Shown piece after piece: positions 16,350 to 51,090 of a DNA stretch of 64,000 bases. Origin of the DNA: a virus (Duplodnaviria > Caudoviricetes); the IMG/VR virus record IMGVR_UViG_3300029305_005280; one strand, written 5' to 3'. Position 1 is the stretch's first letter. The number at the start of each line of letters is the position of its first letter. The notes below the pieces were generated by a model that was not told the DNA's origin, made no database searches, and worked only from the letters and a program-made list of their open reading frames with translations. A program made the translations under genes and the position numbers.

Positions 16350-18332
16350 ATGCCTAAGATTGTAATTACAGAAATTGATAATACTACTCCTGGCGTGTTA
16401 GATGAAGACTTTGACGTTGTTTATATCCCTGGTTTTGTTGATACAACTCAATCATGTTTATACAACAACAATGGTGATTATGTAGGTCTTGAACCTCGTG
16501 TTCCTACTTTATTCACTTCTGTTTCAACATTTACATCAAGATGTGGTACTGCTCCTGCAAAGTTCTCAAGTAGACAAGATTACAGAAGTTTAAATACTGC
16601 AGCAACTCAGGGATTTGCTTCCGACGCAGTTCCTTATGATTATGTAATGTTTGAAGCCGGTGAATATGACCCTTCATACATCATGGCAAAAGAACTTCTT
16701 TCCGCAGGATTAAATGTTGTTTATGAAAGAATCAATCCTGACGAATTAACAACAGACGTTACAGTAAATGGTGACGCCCTTGTTCCTGCATTTGATTCAA
16801 CTGCAACATATAAAGTTGAAAAAGTTATCTATAAAACAATTAGCGGTGCAATTGCACCTAGTTTATATACACACTTTGACGAGCGTGTAGCATTTAATAC
16901 AAGTGCTACTTATTATGTTCTTGTTGAAGGTGCTTATGTTGAGAAGACTGGTCAAGCAATTGTTGATGAATATACAGAGCAACACGGTGGAGAGATGCAA
17001 GGCTTTGATGCATTCTATGCACTTGATGCAGAGGTTGATGGCGACACAACAACATATTATGTTGATGCAGAGTCAGAGCTGTATACATTAGCAAAATTCT
17101 ATGCTTTAACTGCACTTGAAGGTGTAACCGGTTCATCAATCAATGGTGATGTTTTAACACTTGTAGATGGAATTGAAACCGTTAAGCAGATGTCACTCTA
17201 TCCATTAACTAAATTACCTGATGATTGGAACACACAATACTACTTAACTTATTATGAGCCAGTTAAAACTCTTACAGCGGTTAAAGAGGAAAGTGGTAAA
17301 ACTATTCAGGAACAAGTTAAATCTGCAATTACTGCGGGAAATAAAGTTACTGTAAATGTTCCAACTGTTTCTATTGCAGTTATGTACAATACTTTACCAA
17401 GTGTATTTGATACATCAGCAAGAGATGGTTTAGCTGATAAAGGTAACTACAGCATCAAGTATTTAACATCAGGCGGATATCCTGTTTACGAATACAACAA
17501 TGGTTCACTTGTTACTGCAATGTTAAATCTTGCAGAGAATAGAGGAGATTGCGTTGCAATCATTGACCACACAGATAATCTTTACAGAGAGTCAAATATT
17601 GACCTACCTGGCAGCGTTTACTATGCAGTTAAGAATGATGTTTCTCTTGAGGGTAAAGGCGATTTTGGTACAATGTTTACTCCCTGGGCTCTTTATAATA
17701 GAACCACATCAGATAAAAATGGTAATGAAGTTATTCCAAGTACTTCAATTAGAATGAGCGGTGGATATGCTTATCTTGTTGCATTAGCCGATTCAATCAA
17801 AACTAATGCACCTTGGTTAGCAGTCGCTGGTTCCGCAAGAGGTTCTGTTCAAAATCTTGCACAGAATGGAATGACAACAAATATTCCAAATGGTGCAGCA
17901 GATGCAATGCAGCCTCGTTCCGATGGAATTGCAATAAATGCAATTACAAATATTAAACCTTATGGATACACAATCTGGGGCAATAGAACACTTAAAAAGA
18001 ATGAAGAAAATCTTGTTGCTACATCATTCTTAAATGTTAGAAACCTCGTTAGTGATGTTAAGAAAGTATGTTATAGAGCAGCTCGTAAGTTGACCTTTGA
18101 GCAGAACAATGATATTCTTTGGATTAACTTTAAAGCAGAAATTGCTCCTACACTTGACAGAATGGTATCAGGCTATGGTTTAAGTGGTTATAAGCTAGTA
18201 AGAGATACTGAACACGAAAGAGCAGCTGAAAAAGCAACTTTATGTGCAAAGATTTTCTTATATCCTGTATATCCTGTAGAAGATTTCTACGTAACAATCA
18301 TTCTACAAGATGACGAAATAAGCGTAGAATAA
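16350..18332 (+). CDS. Tail sheath protein
   Basis: RGDCVAIID, PWLAVAGSARG, INAI, IWGNRTL, LNVRNL, FEQNN sheath motifs. Confidence 0.92.
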   Translation: MPKIVITEIDNTTPGVLDEDFDVVYIPGFVDTTQSCLYNNNGDYVGLEPRVPTLFTSVSTFTSRCGTAPAKFSSRQDYRSLNTAATQGFASDAVPYDYVMFEAGEYDPSYIMAKELLSAGLNVVYERINPDELTTDVTVNGDALVPAFDSTATYKVEKVIYKTISGAIAPSLYTHFDERVAFNTSATYYVLVEGAYVEKTGQAIVDEYTEQHGGEMQGFDAFYALDAEVDGDTTTYYVDAESELYTLAKFYALTALEGVTGSSINGDVLTLVDGIETVKQMSLYPLTKLPDDWNTQYYLTYYEPVKTLTAVKEESGKTIQEQVKSAITAGNKVTVNVPTVSIAVMYNTLPSVFDTSARDGLADKGNYSIKYLTSGGYPVYEYNNGSLVTAMLNLAENRGDCVAIIDHTDNLYRESNIDLPGSVYYAVKNDVSLEGKGDFGTMFTPWALYNRTTSDKNGNEVIPSTSIRMSGGYAYLVALADSIKTNAPWLAVAGSARGSVQNLAQNGMTTNIPNGAADAMQPRSDGIAINAITNIKPYGYTIWGNRTLKKNEENLVATSFLNVRNLVSDVKKVCYRAARKLTFEQNNDILWINFKAEIAPTLDRMVSGYGLSGYKLVRDTEHERAAEKATLCAKIFLYPVYPVEDFYVTIILQDDEISVE

Positions 18333-42607: not shown

Positions 42608-43477
42608 ATGGCACAAGTTTCGTTTGATGCTGTTCCTGCTGAAAATCAGGGCGGCGGTAATTTTAATTCTGTTGAGTTTTTTACTCTAAGAAATGATGGA
42701 GATGAAGCGCTTGTAAGAATTCTTCATGACAGTACAGACTCATTCAATATCTTTACTGTCCATGATAATCTTTCCGTAAATGGCAAACGCAGAAAGGTAA
42801 ATTGTTTAAGAAGTCCAAAGGACCCTGTTGAAATGTGTCCGCTTTGTGCAAGTGGTAATAATATTGTAAATAGAATTTATATCAATATGCTTGTATATGG
42901 AAAAGATGCAAATGGTCAGATGACTATCACACCTGTGGTTTGGGAGCGTAGTTTTGCTTATGCATCAAGACTTAAAGTACTTATTGATGAATATGGTCCT
43001 CTTTCACAGTCAATTTTTAAGATTAAGAGAAGTGGCGCTGCAGGAAGTATGGAAACAAAATATGATATTCTATACTGTAACCCCAAAATTTATCCTGATA
43101 ATCTGTATCCAATTGCAAATACAGAAAAGTTTGAAGGATATTCCGCACTTGGCAGCGTGATTATGAATAAAACTGCTGCTGATATGAATGTGTTCTTAAA
43201 TACTGGTGCATTCCCTGCAGCACCTCAGAATGAAAATGCAAATGCAGCACCTCAGCAGATGAGTTATCAGCCAAAAGTTGAAACAAACGCACCTGTTTAT
43301 TCGGAGGTTCCGCCTGCAATTCCTGTAAATCCTACACCAGCAACAGGTGGTTATGTTCCTCAGGGAACTGGTACACCGAGCGCAGCACCACAGAGATGGA
43401 ACACAACCGGAGCACCTGCTCCTGTGGTTGAGAGTCCTTCAACCACAGGAAATGGGCCTGGACCTAGATATTATTGA
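42608..43477 (+). CDS. Single-stranded DNA-binding protein (gp32-like)
   Basis: H...C...CPLC Zn site, FKIKRSG...TKY; between primase and polymerase. Confidence 0.75.
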   Translation: MAQVSFDAVPAENQGGGNFNSVEFFTLRNDGDEALVRILHDSTDSFNIFTVHDNLSVNGKRRKVNCLRSPKDPVEMCPLCASGNNIVNRIYINMLVYGKDANGQMTITPVVWERSFAYASRLKVLIDEYGPLSQSIFKIKRSGAAGSMETKYDILYCNPKIYPDNLYPIANTEKFEGYSALGSVIMNKTAADMNVFLNTGAFPAAPQNENANAAPQQMSYQPKVETNAPVYSEVPPAIPVNPTPATGGYVPQGTGTPSAAPQRWNTTGAPAPVVESPSTTGNGPGPRYY

Positions 43478-45954
43478 TGGCAGGGTCTTTATGGGGCGAA
43501 GAGTTTGTTATTCCTAAAACTCCTCCAAAGAAAGTTATAAACAAGGTTAATAACCCCAAAGATGCAACTAAAGTTGTAACAAAAGCATTGAAATCTAATA
43601 GCCTCCCACTTGAGTTTAGGTTGGAGGCTATTAGGACTAATGTACTTAAGATACTTGGAAGATATGCAGACCGTACTCAGGTAATCAGGACAAGAGAAGA
43701 GTTAACTGCATATATTGATGCTGCAATTCAAAATGGCGTTATAGCTGTCGACACGGAGACAAATAATAGTCTTGACCCTATAACTTGTAAGTTGATGGGC
43801 CCGTGTATTTATACCCCAGGTCAAAAGAATGCTTACATACCACTAAATCACATACATCCTGTTACTCGTGTTAGGCTTGAAAATCAGCTTACTGAACAGG
43901 ATATCATTGAAGAATTTAGTAGGTTGACTGATATCAAGATTATCATGCACAATGGTAAGTTCGATTATCAGGTTATAAAATGTACTTGTGGTTTAGCATT
44001 GAAATGTTACTGGGATACAATGATAGCTGTTCGTATTCTCGACGAGAATGAAAAACGGGCAGGATTGAAGGAACAATATATAGATAAGATTGATTCTTCA
44101 ATTGAAAAGTACTCAATTGAGCACTTGTTTAAAGATGTTGAATATGCAGTTGTTGACCCTGAAATATTTGCTTTGTATGCTGCTACTGATGCTTTCATGA
44201 CCTATGAATTATACAAATGGCAAGAAGCACAGTTTAATAGAGCGGGGCATGAAAGAATAAAAGAATTATTCTTTGGTATTGAGATGCCTGTTATGGAAGT
44301 TGCAGCAGAAATGGAGCTAACAGGAGTTTGCATCGATAAAGAGTATGCAAGTAGATTAAGTAAAAAATATCATAAATTTATTGATGATGTTGATATTAGA
44401 ATTGCTGAACAACTTGAACAGTATCGCGATGTGATTTCTGAATGGAGAAAAACACCGGAAGCAAACTTTAAAGCACAGAAGGAAAATAAAAAGGGCGAAT
44501 TAACTTATGCAAAATCAAAAAGTGAACAGTTGAAGGACCCACCTGAGTTAACAAGTCCGACTCAGTTTGCTATACTATTATATGATGTTCTAGGAACAAA
44601 AGTTGTTGATAAGAAAAAGCCCAGAGGCACTGGTGAAGACATTCTTGTTCATATTGATAATCCATTATGTAAATTAGTATTAGAAAAAAGAGGACTTGAA
44701 AAATTAGTTGGTACATATATTGATAAGATACCAGGTTGTGTAAATGATGCAGATGGACGATTACATGCACATTTTAATCAGCTTGGTACGGATACGGGTC
44801 GATTTAGTTCTTCGGACCCTAACTTACAAAACATTCCCTCAAAGAATAAAGAAATTCGTTTGATGTTTGTTCCGTCACCCGGTTATGTGATGGTAGGCGG
44901 TGACTTTAGTCAACAGGAGCCCCGACTTTTGAGCAACTATGCAATGGATGAAAACATGATGAATGCATACCGTCAAGGAAAAGATTTGTATGCAACTATT
45001 GCAACTCAGATTCATAATAATACATACTGGGATAATATGGAGCATTTTGAAGACGGAACTCCTAACCCTGCTGGTAAGAAGCGTAGAAGTGGAGTTAAGA
45101 GTTTGATGCTGGGCATTATGTACGGTATGGGCTCTGCATCTTTAGCAGAAGCTATCGGAGGCACTATCAAAGATGCTCAGAAAATCATTGATGATTTCTA
45201 TGCAGGTTTTCCAAAAGTAAAGAAATGGATTGATGAGACTGACAGTAATGCCAAAAAGTATGGCTATGTTGAAGACTTCTGGGGAAGACGCAGAAGGTTA
45301 CCTGATATTCAACTTCCTAAATACAAGATTGTAGAAAAGAGTGCTTCAAAGAATTCAGTGGATATAAATCCTCTTCTTGGTGCAAAAGGAATTGTTAAAA
45401 AGACTGTTAATCCTTTGATTGCTCAGTATCAAAAACAACTTGAAGAAGCAAGAGGATGGCAGCAAGTAAGCAAGATTAAATCAGATGCATTACTTAATGG
45501 CATTGAAATACATGATAATGGTGGATTTATTGCATACGCAGAAAGACAATGTGTAAATGCTCGTGTTCAAGGTGGGGCTGCAACAATGTCAAAACTTGCA
45601 ATGAGGAAAGTATATGACAATCCTGAGTTGCGTAGACTTGGATTCCGGATGCTATTACAGGTGCACGATGAACTTATTGGAGAGTGCCCCATTGAAAATG
45701 CTGATGAGGTAGCTGCTTTGCTTTCTGACATCATGAAGCATTCAGCAGAACCCGTTGTTACAATTCCATTCAAATGTGACACTGAAGTCAGTGCTTGCTG
45801 GTATTATGATGATTATAGTAATACACTTAAAGCAGAATTCAATAAGCTCCTTGACAAAGGAATGTTGAAAAATGATGCATACAATACTATTCTAAACGAG
45901 CACACTGAGTGTACCGAAGAACAAATCAAAGATTTCTTATCAGATATATTGTAA
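43477..45954 (+). CDS. polA: Family A DNA polymerase with 3'-5' exonuclease
   Basis: VDTET, HNGKFD, YAATD, TGRFSSSDPNLQNIP, DFSQQEPR, KSLMLGIMYG, VQGGAA, QVHDEL. Confidence 0.95.
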   Translation: MAGSLWGEEFVIPKTPPKKVINKVNNPKDATKVVTKALKSNSLPLEFRLEAIRTNVLKILGRYADRTQVIRTREELTAYIDAAIQNGVIAVDTETNNSLDPITCKLMGPCIYTPGQKNAYIPLNHIHPVTRVRLENQLTEQDIIEEFSRLTDIKIIMHNGKFDYQVIKCTCGLALKCYWDTMIAVRILDENEKRAGLKEQYIDKIDSSIEKYSIEHLFKDVEYAVVDPEIFALYAATDAFMTYELYKWQEAQFNRAGHERIKELFFGIEMPVMEVAAEMELTGVCIDKEYASRLSKKYHKFIDDVDIRIAEQLEQYRDVISEWRKTPEANFKAQKENKKGELTYAKSKSEQLKDPPELTSPTQFAILLYDVLGTKVVDKKKPRGTGEDILVHIDNPLCKLVLEKRGLEKLVGTYIDKIPGCVNDADGRLHAHFNQLGTDTGRFSSSDPNLQNIPSKNKEIRLMFVPSPGYVMVGGDFSQQEPRLLSNYAMDENMMNAYRQGKDLYATIATQIHNNTYWDNMEHFEDGTPNPAGKKRRSGVKSLMLGIMYGMGSASLAEAIGGTIKDAQKIIDDFYAGFPKVKKWIDETDSNAKKYGYVEDFWGRRRRLPDIQLPKYKIVEKSASKNSVDINPLLGAKGIVKKTVNPLIAQYQKQLEEARGWQQVSKIKSDALLNGIEIHDNGGFIAYAERQCVNARVQGGAATMSKLAMRKVYDNPELRRLGFRMLLQVHDELIGECPIENADEVAALLSDIMKHSAEPVVTIPFKCDTEVSACWYYDDYSNTLKAEFNKLLDKGMLKNDAYNTILNEHTECTEEQIKDFLSDIL

Positions 45955-45958
45955 GATA

Positions 45959-46007
45959 TACTTGAGTTCAAATACCTTAATCCTCAAGTAAAATAAAAAA
46001 TTAGGAG
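45959..46007 (+). ncRNA. preQ1 class I riboswitch-like aptamer overlapping RBS
   Basis: P1 tacttgag/ctcaagta, loop UUCAAAUACCUUAAUC, A-rich tail AAAUAAAAAA then UUAGGAG; directly upstream of a preQ transporter. Confidence 0.75.
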
Positions 46008-46017
46008 TTTTAAAAAA

Positions 46018-46725
46018 ATGTTAACAAAAGTAAAAAATGAATTAAAGGAATACAGCAGACTTCTACATACAATTCCTTCATGGGTATTAACTTTGTTTGT
46101 CCTTAGTGTAGTTGCAATGAATCTTTTTGCCAATAAATCAATCAATCTTCCGGTCAGCTGGTTAGCTCTTGATTGTGGAATGATTTTTGCTTGGGCTCCA
46201 TTTCTTTGTATGGATATTGTTGTAAAACATTTCGGACCAAAAGCAGCTGTTAGATTAACAATTATTGCAACACTTGTCAATGTTTTGGTTTCAGTTATGT
46301 TTTTCTTTGGTGCACTTATTCCAGGCACATGGGGAGAATCATTCAATGGTGACATGAATATGATAAACACAGCTCTCAACAACACATTGAAGGGAAATTG
46401 GTATATTGTATTTGGTAGTACACTTGCATTCATTGTTGCAGGAATTGTTAATAGTATTACAAATCATGCAACAGGTAAGTTATGTAAAAATGACAATTTT
46501 CGTACATTTGCTCTAAGAACATATGTGTCAACGTTCATTGGTCAATTTGTAGATAACATGGTTTTCTCACTTGTAGTAAGTCAAGTATTGTTCGGGTGGA
46601 CCCTTTTACAGTGTGTCACTTGTTCTCTTACTGGAGCTCTGTGTGAACTGCTTTGTGAAACAGTATTCAGTCCTGTCGGTTGGAGAATTGTTAAGAAATG
46701 GAAAAAAGATAACCTTACAGTGTAA
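46018..46725 (+). CDS. yhhQ: VUT/YhhQ-family queuosine-precursor (preQ0/preQ1) transporter
   Basis: Multi-TM; NLFANK, FLCMDIVVKHFG, GSTLAF, RTYVSTFIGQFVDNMVF match the VUT family. Confidence 0.85.
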   Translation: MLTKVKNELKEYSRLLHTIPSWVLTLFVLSVVAMNLFANKSINLPVSWLALDCGMIFAWAPFLCMDIVVKHFGPKAAVRLTIIATLVNVLVSVMFFFGALIPGTWGESFNGDMNMINTALNNTLKGNWYIVFGSTLAFIVAGIVNSITNHATGKLCKNDNFRTFALRTYVSTFIGQFVDNMVFSLVVSQVLFGWTLLQCVTCSLTGALCELLCETVFSPVGWRIVKKWKKDNLTV

Positions 46726-46742
46726 GGATAGAATATGTGGGA

Positions 46743-46774
46743 TAGTTGAATTACTTTCAGCTATCCCTTATAAT
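46743..46774 (+). promoter_or_regulatory. SigmaA-type promoter within hairpin, driving the modification operon
   Basis: TAG-TTGAAT-17 bp-TATAAT. Confidence 0.8.
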
Positions 46775-46808: not shown

Positions 46809-47756
46809 ATGAGTGTTGTGTATTTCTTTAGCGGGGCTTACAAGCAGCCTTTAAAAAGAGAACTAAACATTGACCAGTTGTTTTCTGTTTATCATGAAAA
46901 AACATTGATTAAGAAAACAATTCAATATAAGAAAGAACATCCTGAATATACAGCAAAGATTATGGTCGATAGTGGTGCGTTCTCTTTATATCAGAAATTT
47001 AAAAAGAATGGTGAAATTCTTACTGATGAAGAATTAACTGCTTATACTGACGATTACATAGAGTTTTTGAATGAAGTAGGAGATGACTTATATTCATTTG
47101 TTGGAGTGGATACTGTTCCTAATCCCGATGACGTTGACCAAAGTTTTGCACAGAAGACTTGGGACAATTACCTTTATATGTATGAAAGACTAAGACCAGA
47201 GATTCGAGATAAACTAATGCCTGTTTTCCACTTTGGAGAAGATTTTAAGTGGTTAAGAAATATGTTGGAACACAAACACTCTACAGGTAAAGGTCTTGAG
47301 TGGGTTGGACTTGCTATCTCACTTGAAGGTAATCAGAAAGTAAGAATTAGTTGGGCAAATGAATGTCGTCGTATTATCAATGAAAGTAGCAACCCTAATG
47401 TTAAGACACATGCTTTTGGTGTAGGTGTTAAATCAGTTCTTGACCACATTGAAGTTACTTCGACAGATGCAACTTCTTGGTTAAAGCGTGCTGCTTACGG
47501 TATGGTAAGTATTCATGACAAAACAATTTACATAAGTGAACTTCAACAGCAAAAATTTGATGGAAGACATCTCACTGAAAAATCTGTGGCAATGCAAGGT
47601 GATGTTGAAAAGATTGTAAATGACCGAGGATTTACGCTTGAAGAGTTAGCAACTGACCCTTATGCAAGAGCAAAATTTAATATACTTGATACAATTGATT
47701 GGGTGAATAACTTAAATCAGAATAAGTTTTTAACCGCAAAGAAGGAACTATGGTAA
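46809..47756 (+). CDS. dpdA: TGT-fold base-exchange transglycosylase (DpdA-like)
   Basis: MVDSGAFS, MPVFH, THAFG, STDATSW motifs; lacks the C-terminal CxCxxC Zn site of bacterial tRNA TGT. Confidence 0.75.
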   Translation: MSVVYFFSGAYKQPLKRELNIDQLFSVYHEKTLIKKTIQYKKEHPEYTAKIMVDSGAFSLYQKFKKNGEILTDEELTAYTDDYIEFLNEVGDDLYSFVGVDTVPNPDDVDQSFAQKTWDNYLYMYERLRPEIRDKLMPVFHFGEDFKWLRNMLEHKHSTGKGLEWVGLAISLEGNQKVRISWANECRRIINESSNPNVKTHAFGVGVKSVLDHIEVTSTDATSWLKRAAYGMVSIHDKTIYISELQQQKFDGRHLTEKSVAMQGDVEKIVNDRGFTLEELATDPYARAKFNILDTIDWVNNLNQNKFLTAKKELW

Positions 47757-47757
47757 T

Positions 47758-48468
47758 ATGGAAAGAGCATTGATAACAGGAACAAGTTGTGGTGTAGGTA
47801 GGGCTGCAGCAGTTAAGTTTCTAGATGAAGGATATGAGGTTTATGGACTTGATATCAAAGAACCTACTATTGTACATAAGAATTATCATCATGTTATTTG
47901 TGATGTAAGTAAGAAAGAACAACTTCCTTATATCAAAGACCTTGAATACATTGTTAACAATGCAGGCATTGTAACTCCACAGGTAGATGCAATTGATGTT
48001 AATCTTTATGGTTACATCAATATTCTTGAAGAATATGGTGACTGTCCTTCTCTTAAAAGTATTGTCCAAGTAGGCAGCACTGCTTCATACAAAGGTTACG
48101 ATAATATAAGGTATTGTGCCTCTCAGGGCGGAAGAGACGCACTAACAAAGTGGGCTGCAAACAATTTTGGTAACGATAAGAGACATGTTATTGTTAATTC
48201 TCTTAATCTTGATGGTATCGTAGCAGCTGACCCTGAAAAAGGAATTCAAGGTACATCGCTTGAACCTGAGTTATATGCACAGCCCCATTTGATGGAAACT
48301 ATTAAGAACCTCAGCGTGTTAAAGAAATTAGCAACTGTCGAGGAAATTGCGGAATGGATTTATTTCTTACTTGTTAAGAATACAGTGATGACTGGTCAAA
48401 TTCTGTCAATTGATGGAGAACTTATTGGTGCTTATAGATTTATTCAGTATCCGGGGTGGAACGATTAA
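47758..48468 (+). CDS. Short-chain dehydrogenase/reductase, atypical (YxxxQ)
   Basis: TGTSCGVG, VNNAG, VGSTAS, YCASQ, TGQILSIDG. Confidence 0.85.
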   Translation: MERALITGTSCGVGRAAAVKFLDEGYEVYGLDIKEPTIVHKNYHHVICDVSKKEQLPYIKDLEYIVNNAGIVTPQVDAIDVNLYGYINILEEYGDCPSLKSIVQVGSTASYKGYDNIRYCASQGGRDALTKWAANNFGNDKRHVIVNSLNLDGIVAADPEKGIQGTSLEPELYAQPHLMETIKNLSVLKKLATVEEIAEWIYFLLVKNTVMTGQILSIDGELIGAYRFIQYPGWND

Positions 48469-49352
48469 TGAATAAGATTTGTGCATTGATTCCTTGCTTA
48501 ATGCTGGATAATAACAGAGAGATAAATAAAAAATCAATAACCTCAAATCAAGAGCATCTAAAACTAGATGCTTATGTAATATATGACCAATGTTTCACAG
48601 AAAATGATTTCATTCCCGATTGTGAATATATTGGTCACGCTGATAAGCGTATGGGATGGGTTGAACCACGAAATGCACTTTTAAGATGGTTTTACAACTC
48701 AGACTATGACTATGCTTTTTGGATTGATGCAAATTCAACAGTGTCAAAACCTACACTAAATGATTTAACTACAATCATCGATAATATTAGAAATGGTACA
48801 TTAGATGATTGTGATTCTATATTTGCTACTTTAGGGATGTGGGTATCTCAAGAAAGGATTCAGTGTAAATCAGCTGAAGACTTCTATGATAATGTAAGAT
48901 TACTTCCATCAAGAATGGATAGAAGTTATAATTGGATGCACGGCATGTTTCATAAGAATTTTAAAAAATACTATAATCAAGAGTTCTATATTGATGAAAG
49001 ATGTGATACACGTAAAGGAACTCCTGATGATGTTTATTTTGCAAGATTGCTGAGAAAGTATACTAACTGCTGGGTAGCCCCCACTGTTGTAGTAAATAAG
49101 CCCTCATCTAAGATGTCTTGTACGTGGGCAAATGAAAAAGGAACATACGATTATCCTCCTGTTCTATTTGATATTGTGGATGATTATATCCTTGAAGAGT
49201 CAGAAAAGAATAGTTATCATATATGCAATAAAAATGTGCAGTTAAAGGAAATTGTAATTCCAAGAAATGATTATCTGCGTGAACATATTAAACATTATGT
49301 ACCACGAGGTAAAAAGAAAGAAACTTTAAATTCAAGAATGACATTGTTTTAA
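48468..49352 (+). CDS. GT-A-fold glycosyltransferase-like protein
   Basis: PRNALLRWF..SDYDYAFWIDAN, IDE...DDVYF pattern. Confidence 0.55.
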   Translation: MNKICALIPCLMLDNNREINKKSITSNQEHLKLDAYVIYDQCFTENDFIPDCEYIGHADKRMGWVEPRNALLRWFYNSDYDYAFWIDANSTVSKPTLNDLTTIIDNIRNGTLDDCDSIFATLGMWVSQERIQCKSAEDFYDNVRLLPSRMDRSYNWMHGMFHKNFKKYYNQEFYIDERCDTRKGTPDDVYFARLLRKYTNCWVAPTVVVNKPSSKMSCTWANEKGTYDYPPVLFDIVDDYILEESEKNSYHICNKNVQLKEIVIPRNDYLREHIKHYVPRGKKKETLNSRMTLF

Positions 49353-49365
49353 AGGAAGTGAACTG

Positions 49366-51090
49366 ATGAACCTTTTAGTACTATCAGGTGGTAGTGGAAA
49401 TGATTCATTGATTAGAGGACTTAAAAAGTTATATCCCTCAATCAACGTAAAGGTACTTGTTAATGCATATGATGCAGGTAAATCAACAGGTATTTGTAGA
49501 AAAGTGACTGATACATTAGGAGTGTCAGATATTAGAAAAAATCATATTAGAATGTATGAATCAATGACAAAGTATCCTAACAAATGTATTCTTGAATTCT
49601 ATAATGATAGATATGATTTTACAAAAGGGCACGAATGTGAAGAAATTCTACAAAAGTTATCAGAATGGAATCTGAGTCAATTTGGTGATTTTGTTCAAGC
49701 ATTCTTTTCCCGAACTAAATCAAAAGAGTATACATATAATGATTTTAATGTGTCCAATATTGTTTATGCAGAGATGTATGCTGCATTTGGATATAAGAAA
49801 ACAAATTCTATTTTTTGTGGTTTACTGGGCATTGACGATTTCTTACTATTAAATTCATTTGACAACGTTTACATTCAAGCAAGAACAAAATCCAATCATC
49901 TAATCGAAGATGAAGGGGATATTGTGGAATATTGTAATCCCTCTGACCCTATTGTTGGTATTGAGTATATCGGTGATTATAACAATGAGTTGAATCAAGA
50001 AGCAGTTAACGCAATCCAGTGGGCTGATTATATTGTTATTTCAACTGGAACATTCTGGAGCTCAATCTATCCTACATTACAGTATGGTGATTTGTATAAG
50101 TATATAAATGCATCTACTGCAAAGAAAGTGTGGGCAATAAACAACGAATGTGACAAAGATTCTTATGGTGTTGGAAGTAATCAATTTATCGAGTTTTTTG
50201 AAGAACTCGGGTTGAACTTAAATGATTTTCTTATTCTTGAGAATACTGATGCAGTACAAATTTTGAAAGAAGAAAATCCCACAAAGAACATTGTTTTCAA
50301 ATCAATGGATTCTTACAACGGGAAGCATAACCCCGATAAGTATGCTGCAGAAATTTTAAGATTGTATTATGGTATTGATTCTGCTGATTCATATGATACA
50401 ATATTGTTTGATTTTGATGATACACTGTGGGCAAGAGATGCCACTACCATAAATCCTCAGTCTTTATACTATTCTATTGATAATCTTAAACTGATGAATC
50501 AAAATTTAAGCAACAAGAGTGCAATTATTTCAGGTAACTCTTACAAAAGTATTCATAATAAGTTAGTCACAGTTTATGGTGCTCACTTTGATTCATTTGA
50601 TGTGGATGTGTGGGCTGATGCAAATACTAATTGCTATCGTAAAGGTGAGTTAGTTGATTCAATTTCTGATTTTATCATGGACAATGAAACTACAAAACTT
50701 ATTGTTGATTATCTATCAAGAAGATACAATGTTATTCCTGATGGAATTAAATTTGAAAATGATACTACTTATTTAAAGATAAAGCCTCTTGATGGTTTTA
50801 CAAGGAGAATTCTTGCCGATTACCTAAATAACTATGTATTTAAAAACATTGGATGCAGCCAATGCAAGGCAGTCACAACAGGTAATACGACATTAGATAT
50901 CATACATATAAACAACACTAAGGCAAAACTTCTGGATGTTTTAGATTGTAAGAATAAGAAAGTTCTTTATATTGGAGACGAAGTTAACTTTGGTAATGAT
51001 GCAGACATTGCAAGTAAATGTACTGCATATGTAAACACAAGTGGTGTTGAAGAAACACATTGTATATTGGAGTTGTTAAGTAAAAAATGA
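49366..51090 (+). CDS. CofD/YvcK (UPF0052)-like transferase fused to HAD phosphatase/mutase domain
   Basis: LSGGSG, NAYDAGKSTG, SDIRK, AIQWADYIVISTGTFWSSIYPTL; C-terminal DFDDTL, ISG, YIGDE...GND. Confidence 0.8.
   Translation: MNLLVLSGGSGNDSLIRGLKKLYPSINVKVLVNAYDAGKSTGICRKVTDTLGVSDIRKNHIRMYESMTKYPNKCILEFYNDRYDFTKGHECEEILQKLSEWNLSQFGDFVQAFFSRTKSKEYTYNDFNVSNIVYAEMYAAFGYKKTNSIFCGLLGIDDFLLLNSFDNVYIQARTKSNHLIEDEGDIVEYCNPSDPIVGIEYIGDYNNELNQEAVNAIQWADYIVISTGTFWSSIYPTLQYGDLYKYINASTAKKVWAINNECDKDSYGVGSNQFIEFFEELGLNLNDFLILENTDAVQILKEENPTKNIVFKSMDSYNGKHNPDKYAAEILRLYYGIDSADSYDTILFDFDDTLWARDATTINPQSLYYSIDNLKLMNQNLSNKSAIISGNSYKSIHNKLVTVYGAHFDSFDVDVWADANTNCYRKGELVDSISDFIMDNETTKLIVDYLSRRYNVIPDGIKFENDTTYLKIKPLDGFTRRILADYLNNYVFKNIGCSQCKAVTTGNTTLDIIHINNTKAKLLDVLDCKNKKVLYIGDEVNFGNDADIASKCTAYVNTSGVEETHCILELLSKK

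Follow-up and report, generated by a model that had tools for sequence, protein, structure and literature searches.

A diverged preQ1-I-like leader between polA and a VUT/YhhQ-type transporter gene in a phage genome

The polA–transporter gap and the genes around it

The window analyzed here, a 64,000-nt stretch of DNA, belongs to a phage record of 156 kb that is estimated to be 97% complete. Metagenomes of animal faeces and of the sheep, goat and bovine gut contain the stretch (at least 10 studies), and it also occurs in three gut metatranscriptome assemblies. Within the window, polA ends with a stop codon at 45952–45954 and is separated from a transporter gene by an intergenic gap of 63 nt (45955–46017). 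A hairpin begins 5 nt past the stop codon, with 4 nt lying between the two, and an A-rich stretch leads from the hairpin to the Shine-Dalgarno (SD) sequence of the transporter gene. The features of the region are as follows.

43474–45954, plus strand: polA, encoding a family A DNA polymerase (Pfam DNA_pol_A, E 1.6e-86; DNA_pol_A_exo1, E 1.7e-15)
45959–45966, plus strand: 5' arm of stem P1, assigned from the sequence, the MFE fold and P1 covariation; G45966 is the closing G and the equivalent of preQ1-I G5
45967–45982, plus strand: 16-nt loop; U45967 and U45968 correspond to the L1 'UU', U45981 and C45982 to the 'UC'
45976–45981, plus strand: loop segment, candidate anti-SD strand of P2
45982, plus strand: C45982, the last loop base and candidate specificity base
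45983–45990, plus strand: 3' arm of P1, pairing with 45959–45966 over 8 bp; the closing pair is G45966–C45983
45991–45999, plus strand: A-rich linker, a candidate for L3 along the P1 groove, assigned from the sequence and kept in relatives
46000–46007, plus strand: candidate 3' strand of P2 (46000–46005) and the overlapping SD sequence AGGAG (46003–46007)
46008–46017, plus strand: 10-nt spacer between the SD and the ATG, which varies in every relative
46018–46725, plus strand: VUT/YhhQ-type transporter gene, 235 aa, with its ATG at 46018 (Pfam Vut_1, E 2.9e-21)
46809–47756, plus strand: DpdA-like transglycosylase gene, 315 aa (phrog_887 'queuine tRNA-ribosyltransferase', E 2.8e-36)

The loop begins with UUC, contains ACC and ends in UC. 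The A-rich run spans 45991–46000 and is followed by AGGAG at 46003–46007; the tail between them reads UUA (46001–46003), with U46001 in place of the C that is conserved in type I preQ1-I leaders (CUA). A sequence-only reading of this DNA had described a 63-nt gap containing an 8-bp P1, a 16-nt loop of the form UUC...C and an A-rich tail that ends in the SD of the transporter gene, with the ATG 10 nt farther on, and every one of these features is present. The MFE fold of the single sequence has an energy of -7.4 kcal/mol (z = -0.53), and 54 of 200 shuffled sequences fold equally well. Judged from the sequence, then, the fold taken singly is not beyond chance, and the reality of the element rests on comparison.

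A stem-loop directly after the polA stop codon might be taken for the transcription terminator of that gene. However, the stem is AT-rich, with G-C at only 3 of its 8 pairs, it is followed by a run of A rather than of U residues, and a terminator scan was empty at the site on both strands. A contig from an RNA library spans polA, the gap and the transporter gene (45904–46128), which argues against termination only weakly; such contigs cannot show transcription, strand or ends. The conservation described below also continues through the SD, and a terminator has no need of that. We regard a terminator as very improbable indeed, and the hairpin is not simply a polA terminator, one of the outcomes that the sequence-only reading had listed as counting against its proposal.

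The gene downstream belongs to a family that would be expected behind a preQ1-responsive leader. The transporter scores 76.9 bits with Pfam Vut_1 (cut-off 27.2), although its score with the NCBIfam equivalog TIGR00697 ('queuosine precursor transporter'), 41.4 bits, lies below the cut-off of 50.95, and preQ1 riboswitches are known to regulate yhhQ (PMC5372724, PMC10622847). A DNA-modification context, also proposed from the sequence, is supported by the next gene. Besides its match to phrog_887, the DpdA-like protein has an AlphaFold (AF2) model, built from 25 homologues, with a pLDDT of 85 and a pTM of 0.81, whose best structure matches in the PDB are archaeosine, bacterial and human tRNA-guanine transglycosylases (E 9e-7 and below, probability 1.00, TM 0.5–0.56). 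The protein has no match in Pfam (TGT included), in PADLOC or in a sequence search of the PDB. The predicted structure identifies the gene at 46809–47756 as encoding a DpdA-like enzyme with the TGT fold.

Searches of the phage genome with Pfam TGT, QueC, PTPS (QueD) and QueF returned no match, although divergent forms could escape such searches, as the DpdA-like gene itself does. With a DpdA-like enzyme present and queC, queD and queF not found, the importer would supply DNA modification with precursor, which is consistent with scavenging of a 7-deazaguanine base by the phage in place of synthesis. Hutinet et al. proposed scavenging for phages that have DpdA and lack synthesis genes, and reported YhhQ homologues in some phages (PMC6884629); in that work, phage 7-deazaguanine DNA-modification systems are described without RNA control.

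Two further observations concern the surrounding genes. The region that follows the DpdA-like gene (47758–51090) encodes an SDR (236 aa), a 298-aa protein without a family and a 574-aa CofD/YvcK-like protein, which may act together as a module that tailors or salvages the imported base; an SDR gene follows the VUT gene in other phages too (L024:2230–2910). The interval between the transporter and DpdA-like genes contains a 7-bp inverted repeat at about 46740–46768 and a promoter-like site at 46746–46774 (10/12 matches), and the DpdA-like operon may therefore have a promoter of its own.

Conservation, covariation and the candidate pseudoknot

DNA was compared for 12 of 1173 transporter homologues (E ≤ 1e-30), and six of these 12 relatives, with transporters that are 67–90% identical in protein sequence, carry the same element. 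Over its 49 nt (45959–46007) the element is 46/50 to 49/49 identical (92–100%) in the six, compared with 52–86% for the 3' end of polA and 68–85% for the first 300 nt of the transporter gene. The nucleotides immediately 5' of the hairpin and the spacer between the SD and the ATG are different in each. Changes inside the element are few. One substitution converts an A-U pair of P1 to G-U, one relative has an extra A after 45994 in the linker, and the loop is the same or nearly the same in L076, L078, L081, L082 and L083, with L075, changed at four positions, as the sole loop variant. In public runs the spacer has substitutions at 46008 and 46010 and a deletion at 46012.

A more distant relative from a metatranscriptome assembly can be aligned to the window only over 45960–46007 (48 nt), the sequence on both sides being unalignable. 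The alignable stretch coincides with the exact limits of the element, which indicates selection on the loop, the linker and the SD jointly and not on the stem alone. These sequence comparisons demonstrate strong purifying selection on the whole element. Because the window-type copies are all close relatives, they demonstrate conservation and not covariation. No relative of the locus was found among the INPHARED phages. DNA pattern scans for further window-type copies gave five matches in viral contigs and 15 in metagenome contigs, which lack A-rich tails and were rejected as chance matches.

Variation in the stem is provided by sister lineages that have the same order of polA, transporter and DpdA genes but carry other P1 sequences, and loops of 10, 11, 13 or 16 nt, in the same gap.

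L001/L004 and L171: 16-nt loop, different P1
L077, L080, L169 and L170: loops of 10, 10, 11 and 13 nt
L079: 13-nt loop, perfect 6-bp anti-SD

All of the sister forms agree in the upper part of P1, in the final bases of the loop and in the tail, and L001 retains the conserved tail C, unlike the window. An alignment of all variants made with MAFFT misaligned the loops, and models were therefore built from clean subsets. In 27 type-I-like leaders, aligned by fitting them to one of our own models (R1, below), P1 is paired in 100% of 156 cells, with changes on both sides at four of six pairs. The covariation of P1 is 0.69 compared with 0.15 in shuffles, none of 500 of which reaches the observed value, and sliding the partner strand leaves only 30–44% of the cells paired. 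The sequence-only reading had looked to related phages for covariation; P1 does covary across the sister lineages, whereas the window-type copies by themselves are only conserved.

The positions that do not vary are equally informative as to family. Among 79 distinct parsed leaders, the closing pair is G-C and the first loop base is U in all 29 from phages and all 50 from bacteria, and the last loop base is C in 28/29 and 50/50, respectively; the parser had not required any of these features beforehand. Loop length, on the other hand, ranges from 9 to 21 nt overall (9–15 nt in the bacterial and 10–21 nt in the phage leaders). The alpha-site residues of solved preQ1-I structures are G5, U6, C17 and C18 (PMC8752633), to which G45966, U45967, C45982 and C45983 correspond in the window, and the equivalent of the L3 adenines is the A-run at 45991–46000. 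At the level of sequence, this correspondence shows that the window element has retained the preQ1-I alpha-site core.

The evidence for a pseudoknot is of a different kind. The strongest loop–tail pairing in the window joins 45976–45981 with 46000–46005 (6 bp, one of them G-U), covers the first three bases of AGGAG and leaves C45982 alone between P2 and P1. The loop strand of this candidate P2 comes from the inserted 3' half; the canonical type I register, which starts from the 5' half, is not kept. The duplex has an energy of -3.6 to -3.8 kcal/mol, no better than that of shuffled loops (p ~0.5); no leader was significant in this comparison, a classic type I leader giving p = 0.96, and the test is powerless because U-rich loops always find A-rich tails. 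In the L075 loop variant, one candidate pair is broken and two are gained at the other end. Thus, of the RBS-sequestering pseudoknot that the sequence-only reading had envisaged, a plausible 6-bp pairing is there, but it is indistinguishable from chance (p ~0.5), and P2 in the window stays a candidate.

Relation to preQ1-I riboswitches and to other phage leaders

A check with the Rfam PreQ1 covariance model, which the sequence-only reading had suggested, went against it. RF00522 gave no match at the site at the gathering level (39 bits) or at E ≤ 10 on 181 nt, and none across the 156-kb phage record; relatives L003, L006, L075, L077 and L079–L081 had no Rfam PreQ1 match either. The closest sister, L001, scores 10.8 bits with RF00522 against the cut-off of 39. 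Formal membership in preQ1-I fails because RF00522 gives no score at the site. The cut-off is a strict one, given that classic-looking type I leaders of bacterial orthologues score merely 20–30 bits. Matches to RF00522 of 21 bits elsewhere in two viral records were rejected as a long unrelated hairpin.

Our model R1 was trained on 13 type-I-like leaders from which the window type was excluded, and it picks up 45960–46014 at 20.0 bits, with an E-value of ~0.001 for the 64-kb window (128 kb searched) that is rough, as are all E-values from our shortened calibration. Over 221 kb of loci, R1 gave 21 matches of at least 19.6 bits; four belong to the training set, and 16 of the 17 others are VUT or queF leaders. 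The remaining one, in the window at 16419–16458 on the minus strand (20.6 bits), was rejected as a chance match that lies antisense inside ORF 16350–18332, its score being driven by a tail-like A-rich run and GGGA. When R1 was run on the whole genome, this match alone was returned and the element was not. Since a spurious match scores as high as the element, model scores alone do not discriminate, and position is needed as well.

The closest cellular relatives of the phage transporter are found in Firmicutes. At 80 Firmicutes loci the transporters are 49–57% identical to the phage protein, and most of the Firmicutes transporter loci carry preQ1-I leaders upstream. In the type I leaders among them, the loop measures 12 nt, the 3' arm is preceded by UC and the tail contains CUA, and a terminator often follows; others resemble type II and have AC at the position of this UC. 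At 16 nt, the window loop is longer than the 9–15 nt of the bacterial leaders examined. Type-I-like leaders with 15-nt loops occur in bacterial MAGs (L087:285–336, L109:70–121 and L121:342–398), and loop expansion is therefore not confined to phages. A fluoride riboswitch (L121:187–262, minus strand; 44.7 bits, above the cut-off) and two tRNA genes (L084:76–283) were found beside bacterial VUT loci.

Compared with preQ1-I type I (RF00522; Carnobacterium antarcticum, Haemophilus and Neisseria; PMC8752633, PMC11625349), the window element has the same G-C-closed hairpin, the same UU(C) loop start, UC before the 3' arm, an A-rich linker running into the SD and a 7-deazaguanine salvage gene behind it; translational control, as we propose here, would be a further likeness. 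It differs in its loop of 16 nt (12 in type I) and its P1 of 7–8 bp (5–6 in type I), both of which the sequence-only reading had correctly noted as longer than usual. Relative to the Rfam consensus, the loop is the same apart from a 4-nt insertion between CC and the final UC. In addition, the tail has U where the beta-site C is conserved in type I, the P2 register is no longer the canonical one, and Rfam gives no score; in the RNA of Carnobacterium, binding is weakened by the substitution C31U (PMC8752633). The claim of preQ1-I architecture accordingly survives in part: the hairpin, the UUC, the final C and the A-rich tail into the SD stand, whereas there is no Rfam score and the tail has U for the conserved C. 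Type III, which lies before gamma-proteobacterial yhhQ (PMC10622847), precedes the same YhhQ/VUT gene family as the window element, and there a pyrimidine-rich loop segment hides the whole SD through Watson-Crick pairing, a translational mechanism that we propose likewise for the window. However, the aptamer of type III is very small and stringent and carries AC ahead of its 3' arm, whereas the window element has UC and a long loop, and its transporter is closest, among cellular proteins, to those of Firmicutes.

The loop insertion, the lost P2 register and the C-to-U change at the beta site resemble decay, and together with the nil Rfam score they could describe a preQ1-I relic that arrived with the transporter gene, in which P1 folds and no ligand is bound, the remainder being kept for the SD and its spacing. 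Such a relic would be expected to drift. Instead, the loop and linker are 92–100% conserved while the coding flanks have diverged by 14–48%, and the distant relative keeps these 48 nt alone. We consider a relic quite improbable.

Most phage VUT genes in IMG/VR are preceded by a second motif, which we call group A (for example L006:1449–1505, and L024:2920–2977 as a queF leader). Its P1 covaries. In the loop, of 19–21 nt, P1 is followed by a U-rich block that is invariant, then by an anti-SD segment and by GA(C/A)A, a conserved block that precedes the final C; beyond the hairpin come an A-rich linker and the SD. No Rfam family matches the motif. The group A model, R2, matches 27 sites at 36–76 bits, spread over 23 of 40 viral records, with no match elsewhere in those genomes and none in the genome of the window. 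At least four contiguous anti-SD pairs are found in 25 of 28 distinct group A leaders, and three have changes on both strands; permuting the anti-SD and tail segments across group A sequences gave no significant result.

Group A and the window element occupy the same site before orthologous phage VUT genes, and they have in common the closing G-C pair, the first loop U, the last loop C, the A-rich linker and an anti-SD in the loop. R1 matches both, and the group A loop is the longer of the two (19–21 versus 16 nt). Group A is found upstream of VUT, queF and queF-queC genes. Because these make up the classic preQ1 regulon, the clade of phage leaders that includes group A very likely senses a preQ-type base, and group A, from its sequence features, looks like an undescribed structural type of preQ1-I.

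Some group A copies have additional elements between the motif and the gene. In L185 (minus strand), the motif lies ~60 nt before a mini-ORF that is followed by queF and queC, and in L188:1507–1645 and L186:1507–1600 an ORF of 6–18 codons or a U-run hairpin precedes the VUT or queF start. These arrangements suggest transcriptional as well as translational expression platforms.

A proposed translational switch and its alternatives

On the comparative evidence, the element very probably works like preQ1-I and derives from it, without being a member by the curated model. The specific reading that we favor, and think reasonably probable, is that 45959–46007, a diverged descendant of preQ1-I, derives from type I and switches translation OFF in response to preQ1 or preQ0. 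In the absence of ligand, P1 would form alone, the SD would be free and translation would be ON. When preQ1 or preQ0 is bound, it would pair with C45982 and stack on G45966–C45983, and U45967 and a linker adenine would contact the 7-deazaguanine ligand. The linker would then lie along P1 and the loop would dock on 46000–46005, forming an H-type pseudoknot that buries part of AGGAG (46003–46007) and reduces initiation at the ATG at 46018. Control would act on translation of the importer within a polA–transporter message, and the importer would be throttled once the precursor pool is full. By such a mechanism the phage would probably adjust import of a modified-guanine precursor to the cellular pool. 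What we infer in this scheme is that a ligand binds, which ligand it is, the precise register of P2 and the polarity (OFF).

The window type and group A might represent a phage-borne radiation of preQ1-I, with a rebuilt aptamer that holds one ligand in a new geometry, and hence a fourth, phage-specific type of shifted specificity. The P2 of such an aptamer would come from the 4-nt insertion in the 3' part of the loop, C45982 would be the sole P2/P1 junction, and the beta-site (second-ligand) C would have been replaced by U. Rather than preQ1, its preferred ligand might be the base inserted into DNA by DpdA-type enzymes, preQ0 or another 7-deazaguanine. This extension is tentative, and we put it forward as possible but rather less than likely.

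Neither of these accounts would apply if the leader were a conserved hairpin that is blind to metabolites, either an operator for an RNA-binding protein of phage or host origin or a stability or processing element that sets translation of the transporter. Conservation of the loop and tail suits a protein site as well as it suits an aptamer, and the missing Rfam PreQ1 score and a P2 that is not above chance also speak for such a hairpin. Moreover, the stem starts 5 nt past the polA stop codon, so terminating ribosomes should melt P1 momentarily, which would suit a role in coupling or processing. However, the invariant residues coincide with exactly those of the core that contacts the ligand in preQ1-I (PMC8752633), classic preQ1-I leaders occur at the same place in bacterial orthologues, the sister phage variants track three gene families of the preQ pathway, and no candidate binding protein is evident. 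We judge a metabolite-blind hairpin unlikely, and the translational preQ1 or preQ0 switch remains our preferred reading.

Riboswitches have rarely been found in phages, in agreement with what the sequence-only reading had stated. McCown et al. list c-di-GMP-I riboswitches in prophages and glutamine aptamers in cyanophages (PMC5473149), and glutamine riboswitches in marine myophages were added later (PMC9004378). The c-di-GMP-I riboswitches of C. difficile prophages and the glutamine riboswitches of cyanophages and marine myophages (PMC5473149, PMC9004378) resemble the window element as phage-borne leaders on phage genes, but they have another ligand class and fold, and they match curated families, whereas the window element does not. 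A full-text literature search found no paper that combines a riboswitch, DpdA and a phage. The Dp-1 genome paper is said to mention, perhaps, a preQ1-type riboswitch.

If the leader senses preQ1 or preQ0, phages would be metering the import of a scavenged base for anti-restriction DNA modification by means of a remodelled, host-inherited RNA of 49 nt. Remodelled forms of this kind escape the curated Rfam model, and phage riboswitches may therefore be under-counted. With loop lengths between 10 and 21 nt around a single invariant core, the variants also amount to a mutational series, made by nature, of an aptamer that is among the smallest known.

A third leader form occurs before phage VUT genes. 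It is a GC-rich hairpin of 5–6 bp with an 11-nt loop ending in AAC, has no Rfam match, and is found in L020, L021, L026 and L036 (~40 nt before the VUT start) and in L030/L038–L049. Its members fall into two sets, with either a very short purine linker to the SD or a longer A-rich linker to GGAGG. In one of the group A records, a truncated IS605 OrfB/TnpB-like ORF (L024:55–549; Cas12f1-like TNB domain, E 8.5e-24) lies upstream of the VUT-SDR-queF cluster.
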